DNA from: Nitrosomonas europaea
GTDB taxonomy: Bacteria > Pseudomonadota > Gammaproteobacteria > Burkholderiales > Nitrosomonadaceae
Assembly: GCF_900167395.1 (NCBI RefSeq)
Contig: NZ_FUWK01000029.1
Span: 7,192 to 39,191, forward strand
Length of the DNA stretch: 32,000 bases
Reading direction: 5' to 3'
The translations under genes were made by a program, and so were the position numbers. This document shows, piece after piece, positions 1,228 through 32,000 of this stretch. Each line of letters opens with the position of its first letter. Position 1 is the first letter of the stretch. The notes under the pieces were generated by a model. That model saw nothing but the letters and a program-made list of their open reading frames with translations, made no database searches and was not told the DNA's origin.

Positions 1228-1240
1228 CTTGTTGTTTGTC

Positions 1241-1798: not shown

Positions 1799-1811
1799 CA
1801 TTGACACGTGC

Positions 1812-2828: not shown

Positions 2829-2955
2829 AACAGCTATTCCGCTATCCCACCGAAAAAATTTCGCGTCAACCGTAGCACTTTTCTCATCTCGTATCGGGAT
2901 ACAGGTAAGGCCCTGGCAAACAGCCGGGACCATCTATTACTGAAGGGAAAAATCT

Positions 2956-5427: not shown

Positions 5428-5437
5428 GGAGATACTG

Positions 5438-6628
5438 ATGTCGTTACAGTCCTGGGCCTGGATTCACAAATGGAGCAGTATTGTTTGCACCTTGTTCATG
5501 TTGCTGTTGTGTCTGACGGGTCTGCCGCTGATTTTTCATGAAGAAATCGAGCATCTTAGCGGGGTGGTGGAGGCACCCCCCATGCCCAAAGGCACGCCGG
5601 ATGCCAGTATGGATCGTATCGCACAGGTGGTGCTCGCACGCCGTCCTGGCGAAGTCATCCGCTTCATGTTCTGGGATCAGGAGGAGCATCCGGATCTGAC
5701 CTATGTATCGATGGCCAGTCGGGTCGATGCCCCGCCGGAGGAAAGTAATTCAGTGGTGATCGATTCCCGTACTGCCAAAGTGCTGGACGAACCCAAGACC
5801 AATGAAGGCTTCATGTATGTGATGCTCAGGCTGCATGTAGACATGTTTGCCGATCTGCCCGGCACACTGTTTCTGGGTTTCATGGGCTTGCTGATGGTGG
5901 TGGCCATCGTATCGGGCGTCGTGCTGTACTATCCATTCATGCAGCGGCTGAAGTTCGGCGTGCTGCGCATGCAGCGCAGTGCACGAATCAAATGGCTGGA
6001 TATACATAATCTGCTGGGTATCGTGACCGTGGTCTGGCTGACAGTAGTGGGTCTGACCGGCTCCATCAACACGCTGGACCGCATTATCCTGAGCCTGTGG
6101 CAAATGGACCAGATGGCTGAAATGACCGCACCCTTTAAAGATCTGCCACCCGTCACACAGCCTGCACATCTTGAAGCATCGCTGCGTGCTGCTCGCGCGG
6201 CGGCGCCGGACATGGAGGTACGACTGGTCGCTTTCCCGGGTACGATGTTTTCCAGCCCGCATCACTATACCTTTTTCCTGAGGGGCAACACGCCGATCAC
6301 ATCGCGGCTGCTGAAGCCGGCGCTGGTCGATGCCAGCAACGGTGAGCTGACCGATTCACGCGATATGCCCTGGTATGTGAAGACATTGTTTTTGTCACAA
6401 CCATTGCACTTTGGTGACTACGGCGGCCTGCCGCTGAAAATTCTGTGGGCAGTGCTCGACCTCATCGCCATCGTCGTGTTGGCTAGTGGCCTGTATCTCT
6501 GGTTGCGTAAACCCAAGACGACGGCAGCATCGGTTTCCAAAGCGGACGATGCTGTACTGCCTCTCGATGACGACCATACAGCACCGAACAACGCGATGGT
6601 CTATATCAATGAGAATAAGGATAGATGA
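5438..6628 (+). CDS. PepSY-associated TM-helix protein (PiuB-like iron-regulated membrane protein)
   Basis: 396 aa. AAGGAG overlaps the receptor stop. The N-terminus (IHKWSSIVCTLFMLLLCLTGLPLIFHEE) and the C-terminal LHFGDYGGLPLKILWAVLDL motif are typical of the family. The position after a TonB receptor is also typical. Confidence 0.88.
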   Translation: MSLQSWAWIHKWSSIVCTLFMLLLCLTGLPLIFHEEIEHLSGVVEAPPMPKGTPDASMDRIAQVVLARRPGEVIRFMFWDQEEHPDLTYVSMASRVDAPPEESNSVVIDSRTAKVLDEPKTNEGFMYVMLRLHVDMFADLPGTLFLGFMGLLMVVAIVSGVVLYYPFMQRLKFGVLRMQRSARIKWLDIHNLLGIVTVVWLTVVGLTGSINTLDRIILSLWQMDQMAEMTAPFKDLPPVTQPAHLEASLRAARAAAPDMEVRLVAFPGTMFSSPHHYTFFLRGNTPITSRLLKPALVDASNGELTDSRDMPWYVKTLFLSQPLHFGDYGGLPLKILWAVLDLIAIVVLASGLYLWLRKPKTTAASVSKADDAVLPLDDDHTAPNNAMVYINENKDR

Positions 6629-7619: not shown

Positions 7620-8000
7620 ATGAATGTAGTTGATTCTTCCGCCTGGTTGTCCTATTTCGCAGGTGACGCAAATGCCCCGGTATTTACAGGGCCTGTTGAG
7701 CAAATCTCGCAGTTGCTGGTGCCAAGCATCACCATAACGGAAGTTTTCAAAAACGTGTTACACCAACGTGGCGAGGAGGCCGCTTTGGTTGTGGTGGCTC
7801 ATATGGAGCAAGGGCGAGTGGTGCCGCTGGATTCTGAGCTGGCAATGGACGCTGCAAAATTTGGCGTTCTGTATAAGTTGCCATTAGCGGACAGCATCAT
7901 ATTTGCCACTGCGCATAAATACGGTGCCACGCTTTGGACTCAGGATAATGACTTTGAAGGTTTGTTAAACGTCAAGTATGTACCGAAGAGCGGTATATAA
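7620..8000 (+). CDS. vapC: PIN-domain ribonuclease toxin (VapC)
   Basis: 126 aa. It begins MNVVDSSAWLSYF (first acidic PIN residue). It also has ..ITITEV.. and ..LADSIIFATAHKYGATLWTQDNDF, which carry the later PIN acidic residues. Confidence 0.88.
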   Translation: MNVVDSSAWLSYFAGDANAPVFTGPVEQISQLLVPSITITEVFKNVLHQRGEEAALVVVAHMEQGRVVPLDSELAMDAAKFGVLYKLPLADSIIFATAHKYGATLWTQDNDFEGLLNVKYVPKSGI

Positions 8001-11610: not shown

Positions 11611-14600
11611 TCACAGATCGGGTTGTTGCAGCACCCATTCGTGCAGTGATACGTAGTCGGTTTTTCCGGTAGCGAGCAGCGGTAGCTTGTCGATGTACAG
11701 GATGCTCTTCGGTATTCCCAGTTCTCCCAGGCCATTCTGGTTGAAATAAGCAACGATTTCGCTGCGGTCCGCCGGTTGGCGGGTTGTGATCAGAACGAGC
11801 TGTTCGCCTTTTCTGGCATCGGGAATCTGAATGACAGCATGGCTGTAGTCCGGCCACAGCTGATGGATCGATTCTTCTATGGCCGGCAGTGAAATCATTT
11901 CCCCGCCTATTTTGGCAAACCGCTTGGCGCGCCCTTTGATGAAAACGTAGCCTTCTTCGTTGATTTCAACGATGTCGCCGGTATCATGCCAGCCCTCGAC
12001 AGGGGGTATGACCATCCCGGGGTTGGCTGCCAGATAGTAGCCCAGCATCACATTCGGGCCGGATACCAGTAGTTTGCCCCCTTGCGTGATTCCCGGAACA
12101 GGTTCCAGTTTGCTGGAAATGCCGGGTAGCAGGCGGCCGACTGATCCGGGATGGTTGTGCATGGGGGTGTTCAAACTGAGGATCGGAGCAGTTTCAGTTG
12201 TGCCATAGCCTTCGAAGATACGCACACCAAAATTCTCCGACCACAGTCTGCGTGTGCTTTCCCGCAATTTTTCGGCGCCGGCAAATGCGTAACGAACGCT
12301 GTAAAAATCGTAGGCGTTGGCATGGCGCGCATAACCGGCGAGGAAAGTATCAGTACCGAACAGCAGGTTGCATTGGTGTCGTAGATCAGCTCGGGAATGA
12401 CGCGGTAATGCAGAGGAGACGGGTACAGAAAGACCCGCATACCGGACAGTACCGGCAGCAGCATGCCGCCTGTCAATCCAAAGGAATGGAAGAGGGGCAG
12501 TGCATTGAATACCAGGTCAGTCGGGCCGAAATCGATCCGGGCGGATACCTGGAAACGATTGGCCTGCAGGTTGGTATGGCTGAGCACCACGCCTTTGGGT
12601 ACGTCTTCCGATCCGGAAGTGAACAGGACGACTGCCGGTGCATCCGGATTACGCCGGGAATGGGTATAGCGATAACTGATTCCCGGCAGCAGGCTTGCTA
12701 CCAGCCCTGCCAGTTTGTGCCACCAGTGCACCTGATGTTTCAGATCTTCCAGATAGATCAGTGTGATCTGCTGTGCTTTCAGACTGTCGGCCAGTCCGGT
12801 CAGTTTGGCGGCTTCGATGAATCTGCGTGCAGTGATGATGGTCCGGATCTGTGCTACCTGGCAGGCTGTCATGAGATTTCTGGGGCTGACCGAAAAATTT
12901 AGGAGGGCAGGTACACGTCCGAAAGCCTGCAAGGCAAAAAAACTGATCACGCTGCTCACCATGTTGGGCAGCATGATTCCCACGTTTTCCTGCGTGTGGG
13001 TATAGCGGCGCAGAACAATACCCAGGATGAAGCTGCGTGTGATCAGTTGAGAATAGTTCAATGGGTTGCGTTCGACATCTTCCGCGATGACGTGCTTTCT
13101 GCCGTGCGTGGCCGCAGCATCGAGCAGTGACTGAAACAGAGTTTGCCGCAGGACATTGCTCTGAAAAATCGTTGTGGTCATGATGTCGTACAGTTTCAGG
13201 CCGGCAGCGCGGCGACGGCGTTTGCCACGGATCGAATCCGGCAGATCGAAGCTTTCCGGCGGCATGACGGTTACGGTGATCCGCGGGAACCAGTGTATCC
13301 TCACCTTCCCTTTCAGTCTGGAGAAGAGCGTGTATTGCGGGCCTGAAAGGCTTACCGGCAACAGTTTTGCCCCGGCCTTATCCGCGATCATGGCCGGGCC
13401 TTCGTAGATTTTCATGAGTGACCCGGTCAATGTCAGCCGGCCTTCAGGGAAAATCACCACCCTGTCACCGTTTCTGACGCGTTCGATCAGCAGACGGGTG
13501 GACAAAGGATTGGTCGGGTCAAGCGCAATGGTGTCCGCCAGAAACAGGAAGGGCCGTACCCACCATTTGCGGGCAATACTGGTGTTGATGGCGAAGCACA
13601 GGCGTTCGGGAAAGCATACGCTCAGCAGTGTGGCATCCAGGAACGACAGGTGATTGGCGACGATCAGCACTTTTTCTCCTGCCTGCCGATAATGTTCCAG
13701 CCCTCTGATTTTCAGGCGATAGAACGTATGGAATCCCCACTGCAGAATGGATCTGGCCAGTTCATACGGCAACAGTCCCGCGATATAAACCGCAACCAGG
13801 CCATTTAACAGAGCGAGGGTGAGAAAGACTTCAGAAACAGTGAAATCCAATGCCAGCATTACGCTGATACCCGCTGCGGAAACCACCATGAACAGGGCAT
13901 TCATAATGTTGTTGGCGGCAATGGCGCGCGAACGGTGGGAGGGTTTCGTATAGTTTTGCACGATGGCATAGAGCGGCACGATGTAGAGGCCGCCGCAGAT
14001 CGAGATGGCCAGCAGATCCAGCAAAATGCGCCAGTGGGCGAATGATTCCAGGAAATTCAGCACGCCGATGAGTGTTCCATTCGCTGCAGGTGTGAATGAT
14101 GTACTGGCAAAATACAGATCGATGGTGAAGATCGTCATGCCCAGTACGCCTAAAGGAACATAAGTTGCGGCCACTTCACCTTTGAGCAGTTTGTCGCACA
14201 GCAGCGCACCGATACCGATTCCCACCGAAAAGAGTGTCAGGAACAGCGTAACCACCTGTTCATTTCCACCAATGATTTCTTTGGCGAAGGTGGGAAATTG
14301 TGACAGAAATGTCGCGCCAAACAGCCAGAACCACGAGACTCCGAGAATGGCGTGAAACACCGTGGTGTTCTCACGTGCCTGCCGGATGAGGGTGCGCGTT
14401 TCTTCAAGCACATGCCAGTTGACGATCGTATCTGCTGCTGCCGGGCGGACCGGGGGAATGAACAGACTGGACAGCCAGCCGGCCAGCGCTATCCCGATCG
14501 TTATGCCGGATACGATCGCCCCTCCCTGCTCGGCCAGAATGAGCAACCCGCCTATGATCGTCCCCAGCAGAATGGCAATGAATGTTCCGGCACTGACCAG

Positions 14601-15044
14601 TGCATTGCCGCCGATCAGCTCATCTTCACGCAACTGGTCCGGCAGGATGCTGTATTTCAATGGCCCGAAGAAAGCGGACTGGGCGCCCATCAGAAACAGA
14701 ATCATCATGAGCAGTATGACGCTATCCAGATAAAACCCCGCCGCCGCGCCTCCCATCAGAATGATTTCGACGAATTTGACGTGGCGGATCAGCCGTGCCT
14801 TATCCCATTTATCCGCCAGCTGGCCGGCAGTAGCGGAAAAGATGAAAAACGGCAGGATGAAAATACCGGCCGCCAGCGTGACCATGATCTGCGGGCTCAG
14901 GCCCGCGTTGTCCATGGTGGTGTAGGTAATCAGAATGACCAGCGCATTCTTGAAAACATTGTCATTGAATGCACCCAGAAACTGGGTAACGAAAAAGGGT
15001 AAAAAGCGTCTGCTCGAAAGCAGCTTCCATTGACTTGGGTGCAT
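11611..15044 (-). pseudogene. aas: fused lysophospholipid transporter (MFS LplT) / PlsC acyltransferase / acyl-ACP synthetase (Aas), with a 1-nt frameshift
   Basis: ORF 12171..15044 carries the MFS N-terminus (RRFLPFFVTQFLGAFNDNVFKNAL), the acyltransferase HX4D motif (VANHLSFLD, ..FPEGRLT) and an AMP-binding domain (LFTSGSEDVPKGVVLSH). After ..ELIYDTNAT the frame is lost. The correct continuation (L)LFGTDTFLAGYARHANAYDFYSVRYAFAGAEKLRESTRRLW..EGYGTTE.. lies in the frame of ORF 11611..12267. The junction is at about 12361-12372, where one base appears to be missing. Confidence 0.8.
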
Positions 15045-19402: not shown

Positions 19403-19452
19403 GGCTGGTTCACTTTAAAATTAAAAAATACAGGTGACCAGCCTTTTTTATT
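19403..19452 (+). terminator. rho-independent terminator after nrdB
   Basis: GGCTGGTTCAC (19403-19413) pairs with GTGACCAGCC (19434-19443) with one bulge across a 20-nt A/T loop. TTTTTTATTTT follows. Confidence 0.6.
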
Positions 19453-19496
19453 TTCAGAAAATCAATTATGCGAGCGAACCGTTCATTTTATTCAGG

Positions 19497-20882
19497 ATGA
19501 AGACAAAATCGAATACCTCACTAGTATTGATTGCCGCAGTAGTATTGGCTTCTCTCTCTGTTACGGTGCAAGCCGGCAGAACTTTAGAAAAAAATATAAG
19601 TATCACTGTACTGGATACGAGACAGTATCAGGTACCACCACACAAGCAGCAGGATGATCTATGGATGCGCGTACGAGCCGGATTTTCCCTGGCGAACATT
19701 CAAAGCCAGGAAGTACGGCAGCACGAAAGCAATTTCAGTAAAAATCAGCGATTCATAGATCATATTGTTGGACGTAGTCAGCGTTATCTGTTTTACATCA
19801 TCGAAGAAGTGGAACGTCGGCGCATGCCGGCTGAGATTGCGCTGCTGCCGATCATCGAGAGCGAGTTTGATCCGGATGCTTACTCTCACAGGCATGCTGC
19901 GGGGTTGTGGCAGTTTGTTCCCTCGACGGCAAAAGCGTTCGGGCTGGAGCAGAACTGGTGGCATGACGAACGGCGCGATATCATCGCGGCTACCCAGGCT
20001 GCGCTGGATTATCTGCAGATGCTCTACAAAATGTTTGGAAACTGGAAGCTGGCACTGGCTGCTTACAACTGGGGACAGGGATCACTGAAGAAAGTGATCG
20101 ACGAAGGTCATGGAGGTAATAAATCTGTCAACTACCAGGAAATCGGGCTTCCGGCTGAAACCAGAAACTATATTTCCAAGCTGATCGCCATCAGAAATAT
20201 CATTGCCAATCCTCGCCGCTATGGCATCAAGCTGAAGCCCATTTCAAACCGGCCTTATTTCGAACAGATCACGATCACCCAGCAGATCGATGTACAACTG
20301 GCCGCTCGGCTTGCCGGAATTTCAGAAAGCGAATTCAATGCGTTGAATCCGGCCTATCACAGACCCCTCATCAAGGCCGAAGATTCTCCACGGACACTGT
20401 TGCTGCCCGTTACCAAAGTCAAAACTTTCGTGGACAACCTCGAAAATTATGACAAGTCACTGGTGTCGTGGCGAATTTACCAGATTGAGCAAACGGAAAC
20501 CTTGCGCGACTTATCCAGCCGGTATCGTATCCCGGTTGCCCGGCTGGCTGAGATCAATGGCATTTCTGAACGTGCTACTCTGAAAAAAGGCCAGATATTG
20601 CTGGTGCCACGTGACGGCAGCAGTGCAAGAGAAATGACCTATCTTGCACACTATCAGCTCAAACAACCGGCACGACCGGCTACGAGGCGCTCTCAATCAT
20701 CGGAAGAACGCATCGTTTATACCGTCAAAAAGGGTGATACGCTCCACGCTATCGCCAAACGCTACGGTATCGATATCAAAACGATCCGTTTATGGAACAA
20801 GGGAAGTGATCAGCTTTCCATCGGGCAAAAGCTTACACTCAAGCTGACATCACCCGCCTTCAGCAGCCCTTATTCTTCCTGA
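19497..20882 (+). CDS. mltD: MltD-like lytic transglycosylase with C-terminal LysM domains
   Basis: ORF 19434..20882. The start is set at the ATG at 19497 because the GTG at 19434 lies inside the nrdB terminator stem. It has a signal peptide (MKTKSNTSLVLIAAVVLASLSVTVQA, with no lipobox Cys) and an SLT domain (LLPIIESEFDPDAYSHRHAAGLWQFVPSTA ... AAYNWGQGSL). Two LysM-like repeats follow (YQIEQTETLRDLSSRYRIPVARLAEINGI and YTVKKGDTLHAIAKRYGIDIKTIRLWN). Confidence 0.85.
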   Translation: MKTKSNTSLVLIAAVVLASLSVTVQAGRTLEKNISITVLDTRQYQVPPHKQQDDLWMRVRAGFSLANIQSQEVRQHESNFSKNQRFIDHIVGRSQRYLFYIIEEVERRRMPAEIALLPIIESEFDPDAYSHRHAAGLWQFVPSTAKAFGLEQNWWHDERRDIIAATQAALDYLQMLYKMFGNWKLALAAYNWGQGSLKKVIDEGHGGNKSVNYQEIGLPAETRNYISKLIAIRNIIANPRRYGIKLKPISNRPYFEQITITQQIDVQLAARLAGISESEFNALNPAYHRPLIKAEDSPRTLLLPVTKVKTFVDNLENYDKSLVSWRIYQIEQTETLRDLSSRYRIPVARLAEINGISERATLKKGQILLVPRDGSSAREMTYLAHYQLKQPARPATRRSQSSEERIVYTVKKGDTLHAIAKRYGIDIKTIRLWNKGSDQLSIGQKLTLKLTSPAFSSPYSS

Positions 20883-23800
20883 ACGATCAGCAGCATCTGG
20901 CCGGAAAATACATAATCACCCTGTCTGCAGCTGATCTGCTTCACGATCCCGCTGACCGGTGCACTCAGGGTGATTTCCATTTTCATGGATTCGATGATGA
21001 TGACCGGATCTCCGGCATTGACCAGTTGTCTGGTTTCGATCAGCAGTTTCCATACAGTACCGGTCACATCTGAACTGATGGCGTATGCTCCGTCGGGTAA
21101 ATCAGGTGCATTTTGCATACCGGGTTTATCAAGCACGCCTTCACCCTCATCGCTGATACTGTTTTCTTCCTGTACGTTCCCGATCTTCCAGCGCTCGCGT
21201 TCAGCCTCAAAAGCCTTTTGCTGACGGGTTTTGAATGCTTGAATACTGTCTGCATGCTGATGCAGGAATGCATGATAGTTGCGCAGACTGAAAACGGTAT
21301 CTTCGGTATGAAGTGTAAAACGCCCGGTGATAAAGTCGTGGCGTAACTCAAGCAGCTCCTGTTCAGAAACAGGGTAAAACCTGATCTGATCAAAAAAGCG
21401 CAGCAGCCAGGGTTTACCGGCGGTAAAGTCCCGAGTCTGACGGTAACGATTCCACATCTGCACTGTTCTTCCGACAAACTGATATCCTCCGGGACCTTCC
21501 ATACCATAAATACAGAGATAGGCTCCTCCTATTCCGACTGCATTTTCGGGTGTCCAGGTGCGTGCCGGGTTGTATTTGGTGGTGACCAGCCGATGGCGCG
21601 GATCGATCGGCGTGGCCACCGGGGCGCCCAGGTAGACATCTCCCAGCCCCATGACCAGATAGCTGGCATCGAAAATGATACGTTTGACCTCATCGATACT
21701 GTCCAGTCCGTTGATACGCCGGATGAATTCGATGTTGCTCGGGCACCAGGGTGCATCCGGCCGGACTGACTGCATATATTTTTCGATGGCAAGTTTTGTG
21801 GCAGCGTCATCCCAGGAAAGGGGTAAATGCACGATACGCGAAGGCATTTCCATATCGTCGCTTGCCGGTAAATCCTTCTCGGCGGTAATGAGTTTATTCA
21901 GGAGATGGTCACGATCCAGAAGCCGCGAATCGAAATGTATCTGCAAAGAGCGAATGCCCGGTGTCATGTCGAGAATTCCGGGCAGATCGCCTTTTTCAAC
22001 ACAGTGCTGCAGCCAGGCCATCAGGGCATGTGCGCGAAAATGCAGTGCGATATCGAGTACCGCTTCGCCATACTCGATCAGCAGATATTTATCCCCGGAT
22101 TGTCGGTAAACCACTTGTACCTGCCCGTTATTTGCCGGAATCCGATGCAGTACAGGATCACTCGGCTCAACCAGGGAAGCAGGAATATCGGGTGGTACGC
22201 GAGTGAAGGAATCCAGCTGCTGGATCATCTTGTCCTGTTGCTTTTCCAGCTTCAGCGCCTGTTCCGCTGTGAGCGGGTGAAAACGCACGCTATCACCAGG
22301 TTTGAGCTGACCGGTTTTCCATAATTCCGCCTGTACGATCACAGCAGGACAGACAAATCCTCCCAGGCTGGGGCCATCCGGGCCAAGGATGATGGGCATA
22401 TCACCGGTAAAATCGATCGCACCGACCGCATAGGGATTGTCATGGATGTTGGAGGGGTGCAGGCCGGCTTCACCTCCGTCTTTGCGTGCCCATTGTGGTT
22501 TGGGGCCGATCAGGCGTATACCGGTACGGCTGGAATTGTGATGCACCTTCCAGTCGGTGGTAAAGAATTCATCGATGTCAGCCCCGGTAAAGAAATCCGG
22601 TGCACCATGCGGACCATACAGGACTCCGATTTCCCACCGGCTGGTGTAGTGGGGAATGTTTTCGGAGGGCAATATGCTTGGCTCAGTATCTTCTGCTGGC
22701 AGGATATGCAGCACATCCCCGGTGCACAGCGCCCGTCCGGCATGCCCGCCGAACTGCCCCAGTGTAAAAGTGGAGCGGCTGCCCAAATAATCCGGTACCT
22801 GAATCCCACCCTTGATGGCCAGGCAGGATCGGCTGCCAAACTGACGGATTTTACCGAATCGTAACAGCGAACCTGCTTTGATGAAGTGAGATCGCCACTG
22901 TTCCAGGGGGGCACCATCCAGCCAGACATCAATGGGTGCTCCACATACTGCAATCAGACTGTTGCAGTTGAATCTCAACGTTGGCCCGGCCAGCGTGATT
23001 TCCAATCCCGCCGAGTCATCGGGGTTTCCAACCAGATGATTGGCCAGACGAAAAGCCAGACTGTCCATCGGACCGGATGGAGGTACTCCTACGTTCCAAT
23101 AGCCTGTTCTGCCCGGGTAATCTTGCACTGTCGTCTGTACACCGGCGTTGAGTACATCCAGGGTATGCGGTTGGTAGTGAAACCCGGAAAGGAATTGGGT
23201 GCTGACCTGCCCGCTGCGGAATACCGTTCCGGATAATACCTGCCTGAGATAATCCAGATTGGTTTCAATGCCGTAGAGCGTGGTTTTGTCTAATGCGGCG
23301 ATCAAACGGTCGATGGCCTGATCACGATTGCTGGCGTGAACGATGATCTTAGCGAGCATTGGGTCATAGAAGGCCGATACTTCACAACCCGCGTCCACCC
23401 AGGTTTCAATCCGTGCAGTTTCCGGAAATTCGACAGCGCTCAGCAAACCACTGGCCGGCTGAAAATTCTTGGCTGGATTTTCCGCATACACACGAGCCTG
23501 TATGGAAGCTCCCTGCAGTTGAATGGTAAATGATTCCAGTGGCGGTAAAGCATCGGCACCCAGCAGCACCATCCATTCGACCAGATCAATGCCGGTCACC
23601 ATCTCGGTGACGCCATGTTCCACCTGCAGGCGGGTATTGACTTCCAGAAAATAAAACCGATCGACCGAGGGGTCGTAGACATATTCCACTGTGCCGGCAG
23701 ATCGGTATTGAACTGATTCTCCCAGGCGTATGGCTGTTTCCTGTAACGCGTTACGGGTTGCTGGCGACAGACCCGGTGCTGGTGTTTCCTCGATCACTTT

Positions 23801-24505
23801 CTGGTTGCGCCGCTGCATGGAACAATCACGTTCTTCTAATGCAATCACTTTTCCACGGCCGTCGCCGAAAATCTGTACTTCGATATGGCGAGCCTGGTCG
23901 ATGTATTTTTCCAGGAACAAGCCGGCATTACTGAAATTACTTTGTGCCAGGTTTTTGACAGACTCATAGGCATCAATCAGCTCTTGCCGGTTGCGGCACA
24001 AGCGCATACCGATCCCCCCCCCTCCTGCCGTACTTTTGAGCATGACTGGGTAACCGATCCGGTGTGCTTCCTCGCAGGCGGTTTCGAGGTGTTCCAATAA
24101 TCCGGTACCCGGCAGCATCGGCGCGTCGAGTTGCTGTGCGAGCGCACGGGCAGTATGTTTCAGACCGAAAGTGCGTATCTGTTCAGGAGTGGGGCCCAGA
24201 AAACAAATCCCTTCTGCGGCACATTGCTCGGCAAATGAAGCATTTTCACTGAGGAATCCGTACCCCGGGTGGATTGCCTGAGCACCGGTGCGGTGTGCAA
24301 CTTCCAGTATTTTATCGGCACGCAAATAACTTTCGCTGGCAAGTCCATCGCCGATACAAATACTGTCATCAGCATCCAGCACATGCCGTGATAGCGCGTC
24401 AGCTTTCGTAAAAACAGCCACACTCCCGATGCCCATCCGATGCAAAGTACGGATAACACGGCAGGCAATGGCGCCCCGATTGGCGATCAGAACTTTTGTA
24501 AACAT
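20870..24505 (-). CDS. uca: urea/guanidine carboxylase, full length (biotin carboxylase + carboxyltransferase + BCCP)
   Basis: 1211 aa. It has an N-terminal ATP-grasp biotin carboxylase (MFTKVLIANRGAIACRVIRT..., KSTAGGGGIGM, EVNTRLQVEHGVTE). AHS2/AHS1-like carboxyltransferase regions follow. The C-terminus has a biotinyl motif (IIIESMKMEI). A guanidine-I riboswitch lies in the 5' leader. Confidence 0.92.
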   Translation of the reverse strand: MFTKVLIANRGAIACRVIRTLHRMGIGSVAVFTKADALSRHVLDADDSICIGDGLASESYLRADKILEVAHRTGAQAIHPGYGFLSENASFAEQCAAEGICFLGPTPEQIRTFGLKHTARALAQQLDAPMLPGTGLLEHLETACEEAHRIGYPVMLKSTAGGGGIGMRLCRNRQELIDAYESVKNLAQSNFSNAGLFLEKYIDQARHIEVQIFGDGRGKVIALEERDCSMQRRNQKVIEETPAPGLSPATRNALQETAIRLGESVQYRSAGTVEYVYDPSVDRFYFLEVNTRLQVEHGVTEMVTGIDLVEWMVLLGADALPPLESFTIQLQGASIQARVYAENPAKNFQPASGLLSAVEFPETARIETWVDAGCEVSAFYDPMLAKIIVHASNRDQAIDRLIAALDKTTLYGIETNLDYLRQVLSGTVFRSGQVSTQFLSGFHYQPHTLDVLNAGVQTTVQDYPGRTGYWNVGVPPSGPMDSLAFRLANHLVGNPDDSAGLEITLAGPTLRFNCNSLIAVCGAPIDVWLDGAPLEQWRSHFIKAGSLLRFGKIRQFGSRSCLAIKGGIQVPDYLGSRSTFTLGQFGGHAGRALCTGDVLHILPAEDTEPSILPSENIPHYTSRWEIGVLYGPHGAPDFFTGADIDEFFTTDWKVHHNSSRTGIRLIGPKPQWARKDGGEAGLHPSNIHDNPYAVGAIDFTGDMPIILGPDGPSLGGFVCPAVIVQAELWKTGQLKPGDSVRFHPLTAEQALKLEKQQDKMIQQLDSFTRVPPDIPASLVEPSDPVLHRIPANNGQVQVVYRQSGDKYLLIEYGEAVLDIALHFRAHALMAWLQHCVEKGDLPGILDMTPGIRSLQIHFDSRLLDRDHLLNKLITAEKDLPASDDMEMPSRIVHLPLSWDDAATKLAIEKYMQSVRPDAPWCPSNIEFIRRINGLDSIDEVKRIIFDASYLVMGLGDVYLGAPVATPIDPRHRLVTTKYNPARTWTPENAVGIGGAYLCIYGMEGPGGYQFVGRTVQMWNRYRQTRDFTAGKPWLLRFFDQIRFYPVSEQELLELRHDFITGRFTLHTEDTVFSLRNYHAFLHQHADSIQAFKTRQQKAFEAERERWKIGNVQEENSISDEGEGVLDKPGMQNAPDLPDGAYAISSDVTGTVWKLLIETRQLVNAGDPVIIIESMKMEITLSAPVSGIVKQISCRQGDYVFSGQMLLIVQEE

Positions 24506-24761: not shown

Positions 24762-24862
24762 TAACCTCCCGGGCTTTTATCCCTCCGTGGAGCTTCGTAT
24801 GACGAAGCCTCAAGCTCTCGGACCAGTCACTTTCCCTGGGAAAGCCGGAACCCTAGCCTGAA
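24762..24862 (-). promoter_or_regulatory. guanidine-I (ykkC) riboswitch aptamer, minus strand
   Basis: The reverse complement reads CTAGGGTTCCGGCTTTCCCAGGGAAAGTGACTGGTCCGAGAGCTTGAGGCTTCGTCATACGAAGCTCCACGGAGGGATAAAAGCCCGGGAGG. It contains the ykkC signature blocks CUAGGGUUCCG, GGUCCGAGAG, ACGGAGGGA and AAAGCCCGGGAG. It lies about 257 nt upstream of the carboxylase ATG at 24505. Confidence 0.88.
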
Positions 24863-24940
24863 GTAATTTCAATCAGCCACCAGTACAGTCGATGCCGATG
24901 ATGTCGGTGCTGCTGGCCGTAATCAAAACATATGTGCCAT

Positions 24941-24980: not shown

Positions 24981-25010
24981 TTGTCTTTCAAAAATTCCGG
25001 TGTATATAAT
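24981..25010 (+). promoter_or_regulatory. putative promoter for the plus-strand riboswitch/permease operon
   Basis: TTGTCT (24981-24986), an 18-nt spacer, then TATAAT (25005-25010). Its -35 lies back to back with the minus-strand -35, about 10 bp away. Confidence 0.35.
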
Positions 25011-25089
25011 TATCACCATGTTTTATCTGTGATGGTTGAAGCTAGGCCATGTCTCTAGGCAGATAAGGCATCAGAAGCACAGTCGTTTC

Positions 25090-25189
25090 ACGAAACTAGG
25101 GTTCCGGCTTTCCCAGGGAAAGTGACTGGTCCGAGAGTTTCGGGCCCTGCCAGCAGGGTTCCACGGAGGGATAAAAGCCCGGGAGGTTA
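25090..25189 (+). promoter_or_regulatory. guanidine-I (ykkC) riboswitch aptamer, plus strand
   Basis: CTAGGGTTCCGGCTTTCCCAGGGAAAGTGACTGGTCCGAGAGTTTCGGGCCCTGCCAGCAGGGTTCCACGGAGGGATAAAAGCCCGGGAGG. It carries the same signature blocks as the minus-strand copy. It lies about 267 nt upstream of the permease ATG at 25456. Confidence 0.88.
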
Positions 25190-25455: not shown

Positions 25456-26973
25456 ATGCCGGTAGACGAAAAGAAAGGTCCTTTTTCTGCGATCAATAAC
25501 AGATCGGCTGGTGAAGCCGAAGCAGGGGGCGAGATCATTCACGAAACAGGCCAGCTTCGTCGCAGCATGAGCGTATGGAACTGTTTCACGCTGGGGTTCT
25601 CGGTCGTGTCACCGGTAGTAGGGTTATACGCTATTTTCGGAGTCCAGAATCTGGTGACGGGAGGGGGGTGGATTGCCGCACTCATCTTGAGTTTGTTCAT
25701 GCAACTCATGGTAGCAACCGTCTATGCCGAGCTTTCCTCACAATTTCCCATTGCAGGCGGGGCTTATAAATGGTCCCGGCATCTGATCGGGCCCAGAACA
25801 GGGCAGTATGCCGGGGCCATTTATGTCAGTTCGACGATCGCCATGCTGACTACGACTGCGTATACGGGTGGAATGTGGCTTTCCGCGGTGATTGTGGGAG
25901 GAGATATACAGGGAGCCTCGGCAGTCCTGTGGGGAGTTGTATTCCTGTTGATTTGCACCACAGTCAACATAGTAAATCAGAAAGTTTACAAGGTAATCAA
26001 TCTGCTGGGTGTCAGTGCTGAAGTCTTGGGTTCGATATGTGTGGCACTGGTCCTGTTTTTCTTCTTTCGAATCTATCCGGTTTCGGAGTTATTTCAACAT
26101 CTGGGCACGGGACTTGCACCCACCAGCCTGACTGCCTTCCTGGCAGCATTGGCCATCGCAGGCTGGGCATTCATCGGTTTTGATTCCTGCTCGACTATTG
26201 CTGAGGAAGCACACAATCCCGAAAGAATGATTCCACGTGCAATCTTCTTGTCTCTGCTGGCAGTAGGCAGTGTAGTGCTCTTCAATTCCTCTGCCCTAAC
26301 GTTGTCGATCAGTCACGATACGCTGGTCGAGGCCAGCGCTACATCCGACCCTATCTCGCCGATCATTACCAGCACGATCGGAGCCTGGGCCGCAAAACCG
26401 TTTCTGGTGATTGTCATGACAGCCTTTCTTTCCTGCGGATCCTCAGTGGTCAATTACGTTTCACGCATCGTTTTTTCGATGGCGCGTGAAGGTAATTTGC
26501 CCGCTTTCTTTTCACAGGTAACAAGAAAAACGCAACTGCCGCGCAATGCAATCGGCGGGACCGTGCTCATGGCAGGTCTCGGGTTGCTTTTCGGACTGAA
26601 TGACGGGGCCGTTGCAACCATTATCGCTTTCGGTACCGGTGGCCTGTACGCCATGTTTTCCATGACCACGGGCGTTGGTCTATACGCACGCCTGATGGGG
26701 CGGTGGAATCCTGCATTGGGCGCGTTCAGGCTGGGAAGATGGGGGTTGGTGATCAACACCGTGGCTTTTGTCTGGGCATTATTCGAACTGATCAATATCG
26801 GCTGGCCGCGGGAATATGTGGCAGCCCCCGGAGCGCCATGGTGGCAGCTCTGGGCGGTACCTCTGGTGCTGGGCACCATACTGGCTCTGACGACGCTGCA
26901 CGTGCAGATGGGCCACAAGCGTCGGATGAAGAGGGCTCTGAGCGGTACTGTCACGGACGATCTGCAGAAGTAG
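25456..26973 (+). CDS. APC-superfamily amino acid/polyamine-type permease (candidate guanidine or urea importer)
   Basis: ORF 25384..26973. The start is set at the ATG at 25456, preceded by AAGGAGG. There are about 12 hydrophobic segments and an APC-like TM1 (FTLGFSVVSPVVGLYAIFG). It is the first gene after the riboswitch. Confidence 0.85.
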   Translation: MPVDEKKGPFSAINNRSAGEAEAGGEIIHETGQLRRSMSVWNCFTLGFSVVSPVVGLYAIFGVQNLVTGGGWIAALILSLFMQLMVATVYAELSSQFPIAGGAYKWSRHLIGPRTGQYAGAIYVSSTIAMLTTTAYTGGMWLSAVIVGGDIQGASAVLWGVVFLLICTTVNIVNQKVYKVINLLGVSAEVLGSICVALVLFFFFRIYPVSELFQHLGTGLAPTSLTAFLAALAIAGWAFIGFDSCSTIAEEAHNPERMIPRAIFLSLLAVGSVVLFNSSALTLSISHDTLVEASATSDPISPIITSTIGAWAAKPFLVIVMTAFLSCGSSVVNYVSRIVFSMAREGNLPAFFSQVTRKTQLPRNAIGGTVLMAGLGLLFGLNDGAVATIIAFGTGGLYAMFSMTTGVGLYARLMGRWNPALGAFRLGRWGLVINTVAFVWALFELINIGWPREYVAAPGAPWWQLWAVPLVLGTILALTTLHVQMGHKRRMKRALSGTVTDDLQK

Positions 26974-27050: not shown

Positions 27051-27779
27051 ATGAATCAGGTAACGACCTATCTTTGGGAAACACATCTCCCCGGTGGCAG
27101 CCACTGGTCTGGTGTCGTGCGCCGGGGAACGACCTTGCGCCTGACAGATGTGTCAGGCGGGGCCAACGCCGCAGTGTTATTTTACAACCTGGAAGAGAAG
27201 CTGGAGCGTTACAACATGGCTGATACGCTCAAGACCCAACATACTTTCTGTTTAACCAAGGGGCACGCCTGCCATTCCGATATGGGACGGATTTTCTGCT
27301 GTATCACCGAAGATACTGCCGGTTGGCACGATACCGTATGTGGCCTGAGCGATGCTGAGCTGATACAGCAGAAATACGGTACGGGCCGGTATCAGGAGCT
27401 TCGTAATGATATGTACCGTAACGGGCTCGACGGGATGCTGGTCGAGTTGGGGAAATGGGGCCTGGGCAGACGTGACGTGGTTTCCAACATCAATTTCTTC
27501 AGCAAAGTGACGGCCAATTCTGTCGGGGAGCTGCAGTTTCATGTCAGTCACAGCAAAGCGGGTGATCACGTGGATCTGGCGTTTGCAATGGATACACTGG
27601 TGGTGCTGTCCGCTGCACCACATCCGCTCGATCCGGCAGCAACCTATCGTCCCGGTGCAGTTAACCTGGCAGTGTTTCCGTCGACACCTGCAGTAACAGG
27701 AGCCTGTGCACATATCGCGGAGAATGCACGTGGTTTGGAAAATACCCGACGTCTTTATGCTTATGGAGGTGTTAAATGA
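27051..27779 (+). CDS. DUF1989 protein, urea-carboxylase-associated family 2 (carboxyguanidine deiminase subunit type)
   Basis: 242 aa with GAGGAGG upstream. It has [53 protein letters not shown], characteristic of the family-2 member of the DUF1989 pair. Confidence 0.85.
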
Positions 27780-28435
27780 GCGCACAAAACCTGGTTGAAA
27801 GTACACTGAATCCTGATCATGCAGTCATAAACGAGATCTGTGACGCAGGCGAACCTTGGGTCAAGGAAATAAAGAAGGGACAGATATTTCGTATCGTCGA
27901 TCTCGAGGGTAATCAGGCGGTGGATACGCTGTTTTACAACGCACATGATGCAATGGAACGTTACAGTGCCACCGATACGGTACGTCGGCAGCACCGTCTA
28001 TATCTGACGACCGGCAGCAAACTGTATTCCAATTTCGGCAATGTCATGCTCGTCATCACGGCGGATACCTGCGGGCGGCATGATACGGTGGGCGGCGCTT
28101 GTGCAGCAGAAAGCAATACTACGCGCTATGCCCTCGATAAATATCCGATGCACAGTTGCCGGGACAGCTTTCTATATGCCCTGGCACATGACCCGGTGTG
28201 TGAGCGGCTCGGCATGAGCAAGCGAGATGTTCCAGCCAACATCAATTTCTTCATGAATGTCCCGGTAACAGAAGCAGGCAAGCTGGAATTTGCAGATGGG
28301 GTATCAGCCCCGGGCAAATATGTGGAAATGCGGGCTGAGATGGATGTGGTGGTACTGATTTCGAATTGCCCGCAGCTGAATAATCCGTGCAATGCCTATA
28401 ACCCTACGCCTGTTCGCTTACTGGTCTGGAATTGA
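27776..28435 (+). CDS. DUF1989 protein, urea-carboxylase-associated family 1 (carboxyguanidine deiminase subunit type)
   Basis: 219 aa. A 4-nt ATGA overlap with the upstream gene indicates translational coupling. It has [39 protein letters not shown] and [16 protein letters not shown], characteristic of the family-1 member. Confidence 0.85.
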
Positions 28436-28498
28436 TCACCCGTATATCGAACACAGGTATTTCTGAATTTGAACGTAACGCTGGACATGGAGATAACG

Positions 28499-30829
28499 AT
28501 GTCTGAAAAAACGTTGGATACGAACAAGATAGCTGCGCCCACCATCGATGTGCTCGTTCCGGGAATACAAACGACTATCCAGGATTATCCGGGAAGACGG
28601 GGTTACTGGAATATCGGCGTACCACCCTCGGGACCGATGGACAATCTGGCGTTCAGACTGGCCAATCGTCTGGCAGGTAATGAAGAAGGGCAGGCTGCGA
28701 TCGAGATCACTTTTGCCGGGCCAACCTTGCGCATCAACTGTGACACTGTCATCGCGGTGACAGGCGCGCCAATCGAAGTAAATCTGAACGGGAAACCACT
28801 GGCTCAGTGGAAATCGCACGAGGTTGCAGCAGGCGCACTACTTGCGTTCGGTGATGTACTGGGTCAGGGTAGCCGGGTTTATCTGGCAATTCAGGGTGGT
28901 ATTCAGGTACCAGACTACCTTGGCAGCAAGGCTACGTTCATGCTGGGCCAATTTGGCGGACATGAAGGACGCATACTGCAGGCAGGTGACGTGCTGAATG
29001 TCGTGGCAGGTAAGCATGATGGTTATACACCGCGCGAATTACCGCAGGTATCCATTCCGCACTATACCCATCACTGGGAAATCGCTGTATTGTACGGGCC
29101 GCATGGTGCGCCGGACTTTTTTACGGAAGAGGGGGTTGCCAATTTCTTTGCTGCCGATTGGACGGTGCATCATAATTCCGACCGTACCGGGGTGCGTTTG
29201 ATTGGCCCGAAACCCAAATGGGCGCGTACCGATGGCGGCGAAGCTGGATTGCATCCTTCTAACGTTCACGATGTTGCCTATTCCATCGGCGCGGTGGATT
29301 TCACCGGGGATCTGCCGGTGATACTCGGTCCGGATGGTCCCAGTCTGGGGGGCTTTGTCTGCCTGGTGACCCTTGTCCATGCGGAATTGTGGAAAATGGG
29401 ACAGCTGCGCCCGGGTGACCGTATCACTTTCCGCCGGATATCAGCTGGCGAAGCTGCAACACTGGAAGCAGTTCAAGATGCGCTCATCAGTGACTTGCGT
29501 TTGCCAGAGGCAGCATCGGTATCGACCAGCGCGAAAGTGGCAGCAACTACTGAAAGCCCGATTTTGCACACTATTCCTGAGAGTAGCGGGCAAGTGCAGG
29601 TGGTTTACCGGCAGGGTGGAGACAGGAATCTGCTGGTGGAATACGGGCCGATGATGCTCGATTTCAACCTGCGTTTCCGTGTCCATGTTTTGATGGAATG
29701 GTTGCAGCAGGCTGTAGAAAGTGGTGATCTGCCGGGAATTATAGATTTGACTCCCGGCATTCGCTCACTGCATATCCGTTTCGACGCAAAATTATTGCCA
29801 CGTAAACGGTTGCTGGATACGCTGATCACTGCAGAAAAACAGTTGCCTGCCATCGAAAATGTGGAGGTGCCGACACGTATCGTTCATCTGCCGCTATCCT
29901 GGAACGATTCGTCCGTCCAGCTGGCGATGAAGAAATACATGCAATCGGTGCGCAAGGATGCGCCCTGGAATCCGGATAACATCGAGTTTATCCGCCGTAT
30001 CAACGGACTGGACAGCATCGATGAGGTCAGACGTATCGTTTTCGATGCCAGTTATATGGTTATGGGGCTGGGGGATGTCTATCTGGGGGCGCCACTCGGC
30101 ACCCCTGTCGATCCCAGACATCGTCTGGTCACCACCAAATACAACCCGGCGCGCACCTGGACACCGGAAAATGCGGTGGGTATCGGCGGCGCTTATATGT
30201 GCGTGTATGGTATGGAAAGCCCCGGGGGTTATCAGTTAGTCGGGCGTACTGTACAGATGTGGAACACGCATGTTCAGACAAAAGATTTCAGGGAAGGCAA
30301 ACCCTGGCTCCTGCGTTTCTTTGACCAGGTAAGATTCTATCCCGTGACTGAAGCTGAACTGGCCGAGATGCGCAAAGATTTTCCGAGCGGAAAATTCACG
30401 TTGCGTATCGAGGAAGATCGTTTCAGTCTGAAACAGTACAACGATTTTCTGAAGGAGAATGCTGCCTCCATTGACACATTCAGAACGAAGCAGAAGGCCG
30501 CTTACATCGCCGAACGCGAACGCTGGAAAGCAGAAGGTCAGGAAAATTACACCACCAGTGAAATTCTGGAAGATGGTTCTGCTCCGGCTGATATTACTAT
30601 CTCGGCAGGAGCGCATGCTATACACACGCATGTAACCGGCATTGTATGGAAATTGTTGGTAAGTGAAGGACAGCGCGTGAATGCGGGCGATGATCTGGCC
30701 GTGTTGGAGTCAATGAAAATGGAATTCACGGTCAACGCGCCCATTAGTGGAGTGATACAGCGTGTATTGAGTAAAGCGGGCAGCAAAGTTACTGCCCGGC
30801 AAGTTCTTTTCGTGATCGAGGGGGGGTGA
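28499..30829 (+). CDS. carboxylase paralog with carboxyltransferase (AHS2/AHS1-like) and BCCP domains but no biotin-carboxylase domain
   Basis: ORF 28469..30829. The ATG at 28499 is preferred because GGAGA sits 5 nt upstream. It aligns from residue about 458 of the 1211-aa carboxylase onward (65 of 93 identical in the first aligned stretch, hand count). A biotinylation motif is present (VLESMKMEF). The 63 nt between the upstream stop and the start hold no ATP-grasp remnant. Confidence 0.85.
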
Positions 30830-30967: not shown

Positions 30968-31681
30968 TTAATAAAAACTCAATATTGCCTTTGTTCCTTT
31001 GCCGGCAACCGATTCGAAATTAAGTTTCCAGCCAAAGTGGGTACAGATACGTATGATCAGATCAATGCCAATTCCTCCTGATATGTATTGCCCAGACTTA
31101 GCCATTTGGGTATAGATCCTGCTTATCTCCACTGGGGACATACCGTACCCTGGATCATCAATCGTAATTGTTCCAGGGTGCTCTGAATAAATACGGATAA
31201 CACCACGGTCACAGTTCTCGATTGCATTGCGCACCAGGTTACCAATTGCGACACGAACGATATGAAGTGGTGCAACGACTGGTATTGGAGATTCGATTTC
31301 CACAGCTAGAAGCAGGTCTTTTCCCCGACAAAGATATTCGTGATCCGCCACAATGGCCGGTATTTCTGCCCGGACGTCAATGTTTTCGTTATTGTTGATG
31401 AGCGTATCCGGAGCACGTGCAAGCGCGAGAAGAATTTCCACCAGATCTTCCATCTGACTGATGATGCGCCTGGACCGAAGCAGATGAGGCTTAATGGCTG
31501 ACGTGGTATCGGGGTGATCCAGTACTACTTCGGTCACTCCGGACATGGCTGCAATAGGTGTGCGCAACTCATGACTGGCTGTGTTGATGAAATTACGTTC
31601 ACGCTCGACATATTCCTGGATTCGATCGGTAAAACGGTTAATGGCGTCTGCGATAATATAGGTTTCATAAGCTGTAGTAGT
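30968..31681 (-). pseudogene. sensor histidine kinase lacking its N-terminal sensor/TM region
   Basis: ORF 30968..31567 plus in-frame upstream codons to 31681 gives ..ADAINRFTDRIQEYVERERNFINTASHELRTPIAAMSG (H-box), NLVRNAIEN (N-box), DDPGYGM (G1) and GGIGIDL (G2). The open frame ends at a stop at 31682-31684, only about 37 codons upstream of the H-box histidine. An IS transposase gene begins about 100 nt further on. Confidence 0.7.
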
Positions 31682-31684
31682 TCA

Positions 31685-32000
31685 GATTTGATCTGACAGC
31701 AGGTCTTGCCAAGAGGTGGGATTACCCGGTTTGATAGAGGTGCGAATCTTTATCAACCAAACGCGAAAGCGTAAAGGAGTAATCCCATGAGCAGTGTTCA
31801 TCATAAAATCATTAAACACAAGATTGGCTTGCTTAATCTGGCAGCTGAGCTTGGCAATGTATCCCGTGCCTGTAAGGTGATGGGTTTTTCTCGCGATACT
31901 TTCTATCGCTATCAGGCAGCTGTGGAAACAGGAGGTGTTGAAGCTCTGATAGATGCAAACCGACGTAAGCCCAATATCAAGAACCGTGTAGAAGAAGCGA
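31685..32000 (+). mobile_element. left end of an insertion sequence (continues beyond the window)
   Basis: It abuts the truncated kinase and contains a transposase 5' end. The exact inverted-repeat boundary was not determined. Confidence 0.5.
31787..32000 (+). CDS. IS transposase, N-terminal HTH part (partial; IS481-like by recollection)
   Basis: AAGGAG sits 7 nt upstream of the ATG at 31787. My translation is MSSVHHKIIKHKIGLLNLAAELGNVSRACKVMGFSRDTFYRYQAAVETGGVEALIDANRRKPNIKNRVEEA. This resembles the N-terminus of HTH + rve-type transposases. The frame stays open to the window edge, which is why it is missing from the ORF track. Confidence 0.6.
   Translation, partial: MSSVHHKIIKHKIGLLNLAAELGNVSRACKVMGFSRDTFYRYQAAVETGGVEALIDANRRKPNIKNRVEEA

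Follow-up and report, generated by a model that had tools for sequence, protein, structure and literature searches.

The carboxylase pathway of guanidine degradation has been described as costing one ATP per guanidine, and betaproteobacterial ammonia-oxidising bacteria (AOB) have on this account been argued to be at an energetic disadvantage against comammox Nitrospira equipped with a guanidinase (PMC11410670, PMC12186494). Here we describe a guanidine locus of Nitrosomonas europaea, lying in a 32,000-nucleotide stretch of contig NZ_FUWK01000029.1 (positions 7,192 to 39,191; hereafter the window), in which a full-length guanidine carboxylase is accompanied by a paralog without a biotin carboxylase (BC) domain. 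We refer to this paralog, at 28499-30829 on the plus strand of the window, as the short gene, and to its product as the short protein. On the evidence of its sequence, the best explanation is that it encodes a functional biotin-dependent protein that unites a carboxyltransferase (CT) with a biotin carrier. How such a protein would act is less certain, and we tentatively propose a carboxyl shuttle that would take the place of allophanate hydrolase (AH).

Among described systems, guanidine carboxylase (Gca, TIGR02712) has homologous CT_A_B and CT_C_D subdomains and a homologous C-terminal carrier, and the short protein is 55-67% identical to other guanidine carboxylases. The two have in common an Asp at the positions equivalent to K. 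lactis 1330 and 1584 and a general-base lysine, and their loci have in common the guanidine-I riboswitch and the cgdAB neighborhood. The short protein differs in that the whole BC/ATP-grasp domain (~445 aa) is absent, in 12 near-invariant positions, and in that no AH gene follows. Against TIGR02712, an EC 6.3.4.6-type equivalog, it scores 1134 bits where the cut-off is 1304, and it covers only model positions 436-1201. Domain content thus places the short protein outside the urea/guanidine carboxylase equivalog, although by its sequence it clearly derives from that family.

Other biotin enzymes and their relatives share parts of this design. The beta subunit of two-subunit pyruvate carboxylase (PycB) has the same combination of CT and carrier in one polypeptide with BC absent, but its CT fold is unrelated to that of the short protein. 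PycB always has a dedicated gene for a BC alpha subunit, with which it forms a stable complex; no BC-only gene was found beside the short gene in the window or in the related loci L001-L008, and those seen elsewhere are contig-edge fragments or frameshifted calls. The biotin transcarboxylases and decarboxylases, for example the alpha subunit of oxaloacetate decarboxylase, are likewise BC-less proteins with CT and carrier, and they move a carboxyl group from donor to biotin without ATP; their CT families are different, however, the transcarboxylase having two distinct CT subunits and the decarboxylases needing a membrane subunit. We know of none that acts on allophanate or guanidine. The MSMEG_0435-0436 proteins, which tune the mycobacterial acyl-CoA carboxylase, resemble the CT of urea carboxylase and act in trans on the carrier biotin of another enzyme, but they are two separate small proteins that lack both a carrier and catalytic residues, and no activity as a carboxylase was found for them. 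PDB entries 3MML and 9YX5 give weak sequence matches to the CT_A_B part of the short protein. Finally, the CT_A_B and CT_C_D folds recur in PxpB and PxpC of 5-oxoprolinase, which, unlike the short protein, have no biotin carrier. These proteins work with PxpA. The NCBI family name that makes the short protein a PxpBC 5-oxoprolinase was rejected: it scores 149 bits against 500 for PxpC and 38 against 146 for PxpB, it has a biotin carrier, and no LamB/YcsF-type gene (the PxpA partner) was present among the scanned neighbor genes.

We found no paper that describes or discusses the short protein. The preliminary description of this locus (a reading of the sequence alone) knew of no characterized split guanidine or urea carboxylase. 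The supplementary table of Palatinszky et al. 2024 counts it (CAD86328.1) as a guanidine carboxylase, and the text of that study is silent on truncation or paralogs.

A conserved and expressed gene without a biotin carboxylase domain

The short gene is the last gene of the operon permease-cgdA-cgdB-short, which lies behind a Guanidine-I riboswitch (Table 1). Its open reading frame spans 28469..30829(+), and the conserved ATG at 28499, which yields 776 aa, stands five bases after a GGAGA and 63 nt past the cgdB stop at 28435; this is also the 2331-nt RefSeq gene used in a published RNA-seq table. No promoter-like site was seen directly ahead of it, the only good candidate being upstream of the riboswitch. 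Pfam finds CT_A_B (E=9e-96), CT_C_D (E=1e-37) and Biotin_lipoyl (aa 712-773, E=2e-15) in the short protein, and no Biotin_carb_N, CPSase_L_D2 or Biotin_carb_C; in the full-length protein Biotin_carb_N, ATP-grasp, Biotin_carb_C, CT_A_B, CT_C_D and Biotin_lipoyl are all present. The frame of the short protein extends 21 codons upstream of the start and no further, and tblastn with the BC domain (E<=10) matched nothing in the window outside the full-length gene.

What the preliminary description had observed in this sequence is borne out in full. It had placed the gene last in a riboswitch-controlled plus-strand operon, with a clean start 63 nt after a DUF1989 gene, its own Shine-Dalgarno sequence (28489-28493), an ESMKME biotin-attachment motif (present, with the lysine at K740) and no trace of an ATP-grasp domain in the spacer, and had predicted that Pfam would find the CT and biotin-lipoyl domains without those of BC. 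Its estimate of colinearity with residues about 458-1211 of the full-length protein compares with a BLASTP alignment to residues 448-1209 (62% identity over 765 aa), and its hand count of about 70% identity over the first 93 aligned residues with 65/93. It had also suggested asking whether proteins of about 780 aa recur beside DUF1989 pairs: proteins of 756-785 aa with this architecture do recur, and at nine further loci (L001-L008, L085) the short gene closes the same operon, permease-cgdA-cgdB-short. Its reading of the context caught the riboswitch and the operon, but overlooked the strongest clue there, that the short gene replaces a carboxylase followed by AH, and that AH is missing from the genomes with the short gene.

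We collected 55 short sequences, identical in architecture and start, from three genera (those with a named source belong to Nitrosomonas, Nitrosospira or Nitrosovibrio) and down to 73% identity; a 100%-identical protein was found on 47 contigs. The N-terminus is conserved across the clade (M-S/F-E/D-K...), and wherever the contig reaches, the frame is closed by a stop 12-34 codons ahead of the conserved start. At every non-short locus it stays open for 432 codons or more and leads into a fused BC domain. Pairwise dN/dS of the short gene is 0.065-0.11, and that of the same region of the full-length paralog is 0.077-0.095. In N. europaea RNA-seq the short gene has a log2 fold change of 5.05 (~33-fold) at a baseMean of 29341, and it is co-induced with the full-length gene uca (5.46), UAAP1 (6.27), UAAP2 (6.03) and the permease (6.03) (PMC13356812 supplement). 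The short gene is therefore real, conserved, selected and expressed. The preliminary description had reserved the possibility that related genomes would reveal an assembly or deletion artefact, or that the gene is not expressed; instead close relatives carry the same short gene, a full-length gene at this operon position being found only in more distant relatives or in carriers of the other cassette type described below, and the short gene is strongly transcribed.

The induction just cited, in which all members of the guanidine-riboswitch regulon, from the permease, cgdA and cgdB to the short gene and uca, rise 33- to 77-fold, occurs late in infection by phage Nir1, and was read by its authors as pyrimidine or urea salvage (PMC13356812). 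Because both transcription units lie behind guanidine-I riboswitches, we consider it more likely that free guanidine accumulates in the infected cells.

The closest solved structure to the short protein is that of K. lactis urea carboxylase (3VA7, E=6e-206), a match close enough to settle its fold. The short protein keeps Y261 and Y570, equivalent to K. lactis Y1324 and Y1628, which we take to be active-site residues. Also kept are D526 (K. lactis D1584, in GLGDVYLG), K547 (K1605, the proposed general base; PMC5770610) and D267, in GAVDFTGD, at K. lactis position 1330, where Asp marks guanidine-specific and Asn urea-specific enzymes (PMC11410670, PMC12186494). It thus has both signature residues, Asp at 1330 and at 1584, by which the guanidine-specific subtype has been defined (Palatinszky 2024, after Schneider 2020). 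K740 is the predicted site of biotinylation.

More broadly, the 55 short sequences keep 293 of the 327 positions that are at least 95% conserved in 137 full-length guanidine carboxylases. Twelve replacements are fixed in the short clade at positions with no more than two exceptions among the 137: N259V, A262S, M272L, P289L, Q425H, T473V, I477M, C491N, S493D, V533L, G574S and F580L. Of 331 family-conserved positions in the CT and carrier regions, short proteins miss 22-27, their full-length partners 1-8 and other full-length enzymes at most 15; the full-length carboxylase of the window keeps 323. In an unbiased list of 29 positions that discriminate guanidine from urea enzymes, the short clade is guanidine-type at 22 and changed at seven, of which S574 and L580 are urea-type, S/T590 is partly so, and V259, N491, L533 and A/T535 are novel. 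With 22 of 29 guanidine-type, a description of the short clade as a hybrid of guanidine and urea carboxylases would be too strong. Between Nitrosomonas orthologs, conservation of the carrier domain is 68-82% in the short protein vs 85-94% in the full-length protein, and that of the tether 59-76% vs 34-48%; a looser carrier with a tighter tether fits a carrier that no longer visits a BC site.

In a survey of one genome per species, which returned 80 loci, all loci outside Nitrosomonadaceae have the order cgdA-cgdB-full-length carboxylase, and the gene at the operon position of the short gene is full length in ~70 other genomes. The short gene is thus a deletion derivative, one of the possibilities raised in the preliminary description. 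In a neighbor-joining tree of the CT and carrier region all short forms fall into a single clade on a long stem, with full-length enzymes of Nitrosospira, N. aestuarii and Ferriphaselus as sister, so that BC was lost once. The best explanation is descent from a guanidine carboxylase, with the single loss in the ancestor of the Nitrosomonas/Nitrosospira/Nitrosovibrio cassette. Given an estimated crown age of 785-961 Ma for betaproteobacterial ammonia oxidisers (PMC11135946), the short gene may go back very far, provided that transfer did not spread the cassette.

Two cassette types can be told apart within Nitrosomonadaceae. Type A (permease-cgdA-cgdB-full carboxylase-AH) is found in N. lacus, N. 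aestuarii and two metagenomic contigs, and N. multiformis ATCC 25196 is also type A by the published table (Palatinszky et al. 2024). Type B has permease-cgdA-cgdB-short without AH, plus a full-length carboxylase elsewhere, which in the N. europaea/eutropha lineage is divergent with its own guanidine riboswitch, in Nitrosospira lies ~5 kb downstream beyond biotin-synthesis genes, and in some Nitrosomonas genomes is not adjacent. In gene content type B corresponds to type A without AH and with the short gene added. The type A contig L082 and the type B Nitrosovibrio and Nitrosospira loci have flanking genes in common (Pribosyltran, Alginate_exp, GreA, methyltransferase), so the two cassettes share one site in the chromosome. 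Across genera, type B permeases have 76-90% identity to one another but only 57-71% to type A permeases, which marks the type B cassette as a coherent unit. The operon riboswitch arrangement of the window is repeated in L001-L007, and the second riboswitch, on the full-length carboxylase, is found also in L004, L005 and L006. Upstream of the Nitrosospira full-length gene we found no guanidine riboswitch or other Rfam element (L001 13376-14064 at E<=1; L008 at the gathering threshold).

Biotin-synthesis genes adjoin the guanidine cassette in several loci (L001 9407-13375; L085 11722-12726; L087 15550-16527). BioB alone stands beside it in Nitrosovibrio and N. aestuarii; Nitrosospira also has BioF-like, BioH-like and BioC-like genes, between the short gene and the full-length carboxylase.

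A search for other independent BC-less lineages was mostly negative, since most short matches in the representative search start inside Biotin_carb_C and are therefore fragments. One orphan protein of 721 aa (P0290, L084 2847-5012) has CT and carrier without BC and is urea-type (Asn at the specificity position), in an unrelated context of thiG, thiS, a lipA-like gene and a MarR regulator. As it looks genuinely BC-less, such members of the urea-carboxylase family may have arisen more than once.

The short gene and allophanate hydrolase

AH follows the carboxylase directly in 48 of the 55 canonical loci with enough downstream sequence, and no AH homolog was found in the window or at any of ten short-gene loci, within ~10 kb where the contig reaches (Fisher p=1e-7, uncorrected for shared ancestry). 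The supplementary table of Palatinszky et al. 2024, which lists the permease, guanidine carboxylase(s), cgdA, cgdB, AH, guanidinase and urease of each genome, gives a second view. In it 11 Nitrosomonadaceae genomes list two 'guanidine carboxylases', of ~2.3 kb and ~3.6 kb: N. europaea ATCC 19718 and H1_AOB3, four of the N. eutropha group, HPC101, one Nitrosomonas metagenome-assembled genome (MAG), Nitrosospira NpAV and Nsp5, and one Nitrosospira MAG. AH is 'NA' in all 11, and the full-length carboxylase is present in all 11 (in one on another contig). Of these, the three Nitrosospira have urease and the eight Nitrosomonas do not. Genomes with cgdAB and only the full-length carboxylase have AH in 15 of 20 cases, always adjacent; the comparison (0/11 vs 15/20) gives a Fisher p of 7e-5, although the genomes share ancestry and truly independent events are few. 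When the AH of N. aestuarii was used as query, named orthologs at 65-80% identity were those of numerous type A species in Nitrosomonas and Nitrosospira; no species bearing the short gene was represented among the 120 best homologs, which otherwise cover the family.

The same table also lists genomes with permease-cgdA-cgdB-full carboxylase and urease and no listed AH, namely two comammox clade B Nitrospira MAGs and N. oligotropha genomes. AH may be dispensable where urease is present.

A possible carboxyl shuttle and its alternatives

With no BC domain the short protein cannot make carboxybiotin from bicarbonate and ATP. Within the biotin-enzyme family BC is limited to the carboxylases, and the enzymes that bear a carrier and no BC are transcarboxylases or decarboxylases (PMC3199775). 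The preliminary description had listed BC borrowed in trans, a non-catalytic role and a deletion derivative, and these stand as options to be weighed, but it overlooked the BC-independent enzymes. The position of the short gene in the operon, in place of a carboxylase with AH, points to allophanate. The reading that we favor, though at clearly less than an even chance, is an ATP-independent shuttle (allophanate + guanidine -> urea + carboxyguanidine) that takes the place of AH and has the full-length enzyme as its primer; that transcarboxylation takes place, in this direction and on these substrates, is what we infer from sequence.

In the proposed cycle, CgdAB would turn carboxyguanidine into allophanate and NH3. 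The short enzyme would then run its reversible half-reaction backwards (allophanate + biotin-enzyme -> urea + carboxybiotin-enzyme) and next forwards, passing the carboxyl group from carboxybiotin-enzyme to guanidine to give carboxyguanidine. Together with CgdAB the net reaction would be guanidine + H2O -> urea + NH3, in which the carboxyl group acts catalytically, and the ATP-dependent full-length carboxylase would be required solely for priming and for making good any carboxyl groups that decarboxylation removes. An allophanate:guanidine transcarboxylase cycling with CgdAB in this way would be a new kind of biotin enzyme and might convert guanidine to urea and NH3 with essentially no ATP, the full-length carboxylase being the primer only; we give this, too, clearly less than an even chance.

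Such a shuttle would account for the loss of BC with carrier and catalytic residues retained, for the disappearance of AH and the obligatory co-occurrence with a full-length copy, and for the mixture of guanidine-type and urea-type residues. It would also account for the pattern of constraint on carrier and tether, and for the riboswitch that in Nitrosospira stands on the short-gene operon only, an arrangement that fits bulk catalysis by the short enzyme and low-level priming by the other. Right after the loss of BC, we infer, exchange would have been the sole retained activity that an intact duplicate did not already provide; being available at once, it would explain why a BC-less duplicate survived.

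Several points weigh against the shuttle. It is a functional proposal drawn from sequence, context and transcripts, and one that we think could well be wrong. A single CT site that serves donor and acceptor in a ping-pong reaction has, to our knowledge, no precedent, and the known transcarboxylase uses two different CT subunits. Several of the changed positions are no more than a few residues away from catalytic ones, as judged by distance along the sequence only. N. europaea and N. eutropha are without urease, so that urea would be a dead-end product, excreted, and only one of the three nitrogens would be gained. The absence of AH comes from one published HMM screen and the 120 best homologs listed; atzF has been stated, without data shown, to be present in the analysed AOB genomes (PMC11135946), and a divergent amidase could fill the role of AH. 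Five genomes with only the full-length carboxylase are also without a listed AH, so AH may be dispensable in other ways, for instance through spontaneous decay of allophanate. Lastly, the association of the short gene with the lack of AH reflects few independent evolutionary events, because the cassette was inherited or transferred as a unit.

The strongest alternative is that the biotin of the short protein is charged in trans, by the BC of the full-length paralog or by housekeeping AccC, with ATP still spent. We rate this as only slightly less likely than the shuttle, and much of the evidence is compatible with it. A CT-plus-carrier subunit served by a separate BC is an established design in two-subunit pyruvate carboxylase (PMC3199775), the full-length paralog is present in every short-bearing genome of the published table, and in the N. 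europaea lineage this paralog lies next to the short gene, behind a guanidine riboswitch of its own, and reaches similar transcript levels on co-induction. The guanidine-type residues are largely kept (22/29), and the fixed replacements could form a new docking surface. However, an enzyme charged in this way would add nothing beyond the intact paralog, which makes strong purifying selection hard to explain, given the crown age of 785-961 Ma for betaproteobacterial ammonia oxidisers (PMC11135946). K. lactis urea carboxylase is monomeric (PMC5770610), so no interface is known through which a foreign BC could reach the carrier. In Nitrosospira no guanidine riboswitch precedes the full-length gene, in some Nitrosomonas this gene is not adjacent, and charging in trans accounts for neither the missing AH nor the urea-type S574 and L580. 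Nor is there a dedicated BC gene. The preliminary description had pictured a split carboxylase, a picture that our search does not uphold: no stand-alone BC gene lies alongside, and the apparent split forms elsewhere are gene-calling artefacts. A BC-domain search for naturally split carboxylases (a BC gene with a CT-carrier gene) gave mostly partial proteins, and the best candidates on long contigs, P0129 and P0106, are full-length genes broken by frameshifts in error-rich assemblies. Two long-read metagenome contigs from ENA (L082, L083) likewise have frameshifts that split carboxylase and hydrolase genes into 2-5 gene calls; such assemblies place false 'BC-only' and 'CT-only' proteins in databases.

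Two further readings seem improbable to us. In one, the short protein is an allophanate decarboxylase that moves the carboxyl group to biotin and sets it free as CO2, with urea as the other product; AH would thus be replaced with no transfer to guanidine. The context fits this as it does the shuttle, with the short gene in place of AH and AH absent, and the BC-less proteins with CT and carrier do include the oxaloacetate decarboxylase alpha subunit. Known biotin decarboxylases, however, need a separate membrane subunit to decarboxylate carboxybiotin, and none is encoded here; an enzyme that acts on allophanate and urea alone has no reason to keep D267 and 22 of 29 guanidine-type positions; and allophanate already decays slowly by itself. 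In the other, which we hold to be equally improbable, the short protein is non-catalytic and tunes the pathway by binding the carrier or biotin of the full-length carboxylase, or guanidine or carboxyguanidine. This would be akin to MSMEG_0435-0436, which associate with a carboxylase complex, sequester biotin on foreign carriers and lower activity (PMC13012033). Yet the short protein keeps D526, K547, Y261 and Y570, where MSMEG_0435 is without key catalytic residues, and it has a carrier domain and biotinyl lysine of its own, both retained under purifying selection. That the short gene is an assembly artefact, a recent deletion or a decaying pseudogene, as the full-length gene at this position in most bacteria might suggest, is refuted by the same architecture and start in 55 sequences of one clade, the dN/dS of 0.07-0.11, the 47 contigs and the strong transcription.

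The carboxyl shuttle and charging in trans differ in their consequences, and current annotations of the short protein are misleading under either. A large group of ammonia oxidisers, including the model organisms N. europaea and N. eutropha, carries the type B cassette; of the five AOB strains in the only guanidine-use experiment that we found, none carries it (PMC11410670). Recycling of the carboxyl group, if it occurs, would alter the ATP cost of the pathway, its products (urea vs CO2 and 2 NH3) and the way it is interpreted ecologically: some of the ammonia-oxidising bacteria would be far more energy-efficient on guanidine than the published ATP-dependent pathway implies, and biotin enzymology would gain a single-site transcarboxylase for N-carboxylated substrates. 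If BC is borrowed instead, the short protein would be part of the first urea-carboxylase-family enzyme known to us that works as a heteromer with its own full-length paralog. The question is of interest for biotin enzymes, guanidine metabolism and nitrifier physiology.

Features of the locus and its surroundings

Coordinates are collected in Table 1. For the permease, the mechanical open reading frame begins at 25384; the likely start is the ATG at 25456, which is preceded by AAGGAGG.

Table 1. Features of the guanidine locus (positions in the window).
Feature	Position	Strand	Basis
Short gene, BC-less guanidine-carboxylase paralog (CT + biotin carrier), 776 aa	28499..30829	+	Pfam, TIGR02712, BLASTP
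CT_A_B subdomain, aa 39-312; Y261, guanidine-type D267 (codon 29297-29299), clade-specific V259, S262, L272, L289	28613..29434	+	Pfam
CT_C_D subdomain, aa 370-593; D526, K547, Y570	29606..30277	+	Pfam + alignment
Clade-specific residues of CT_C_D: H425, V473, M477, N491, D493, L533, S574, L580	within 29606..30277	+	
Biotin carboxyl carrier domain, motif ESMKME, biotinyl lysine K740 (codon 30716-30718)	30614..30826	+	
Spacer between cgdB and short gene, 63 nt, Shine-Dalgarno GGAGA at 28489-28493	28436..28498	+	
cgdB (DUF1989, UAAP2), carboxyguanidine deiminase subunit	27776..28435	+	TIGR03424, 346 bits vs cut-off 285
cgdA (DUF1989, UAAP1), carboxyguanidine deiminase subunit	27051..27779	+	TIGR03425, 334 bits vs cut-off 206
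APC-family permease, putative guanidine importer	25456..26973	+	1518-nt gene model in published RNA-seq table
Guanidine-I riboswitch ahead of permease-cgdA-cgdB-short operon	25085..25187	+	95.5 bits (gathering score 63)
Sigma-70-like promoter candidate, TTGTCT-18-TATAAT, ~75 nt upstream of riboswitch	24981..25010	+	consensus match only
Second, divergent Guanidine-I riboswitch ahead of full-length carboxylase	24764..24867	-	97.2 bits (gathering score 63)
Full-length guanidine carboxylase, 1211 aa, BC + CT + biotin carrier	20870..24505	-	Pfam; TIGR02712, 2022 bits

On its far side the full-length carboxylase is met by a converging SLT/LysM transglycosylase reading frame (19434-20882, plus strand), the two 3' ends overlapping by 13 nt. 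Beyond the short gene, on the minus strand, an open reading frame of 199 aa (30968-31567) has HisKA and HATPase_c only, without a sensor region, and resembles a truncated histidine kinase gene. Directly upstream of it on the same strand is a psRNA2 small RNA (Rfam RF02349, 141 bits, 31606-31785), which may be a leader or a remnant of the truncated kinase gene. Elsewhere in the window there are an iron-uptake cluster with ECF sigma, FecR, TonB-receptor and PepSY genes (1229-6628), a PIN-domain toxin reading frame (7620-8000) and, at 12171-15044(-), a 957-aa Aas-like protein in which an MFS transporter is fused to an acyltransferase and an AMP-binding domain.

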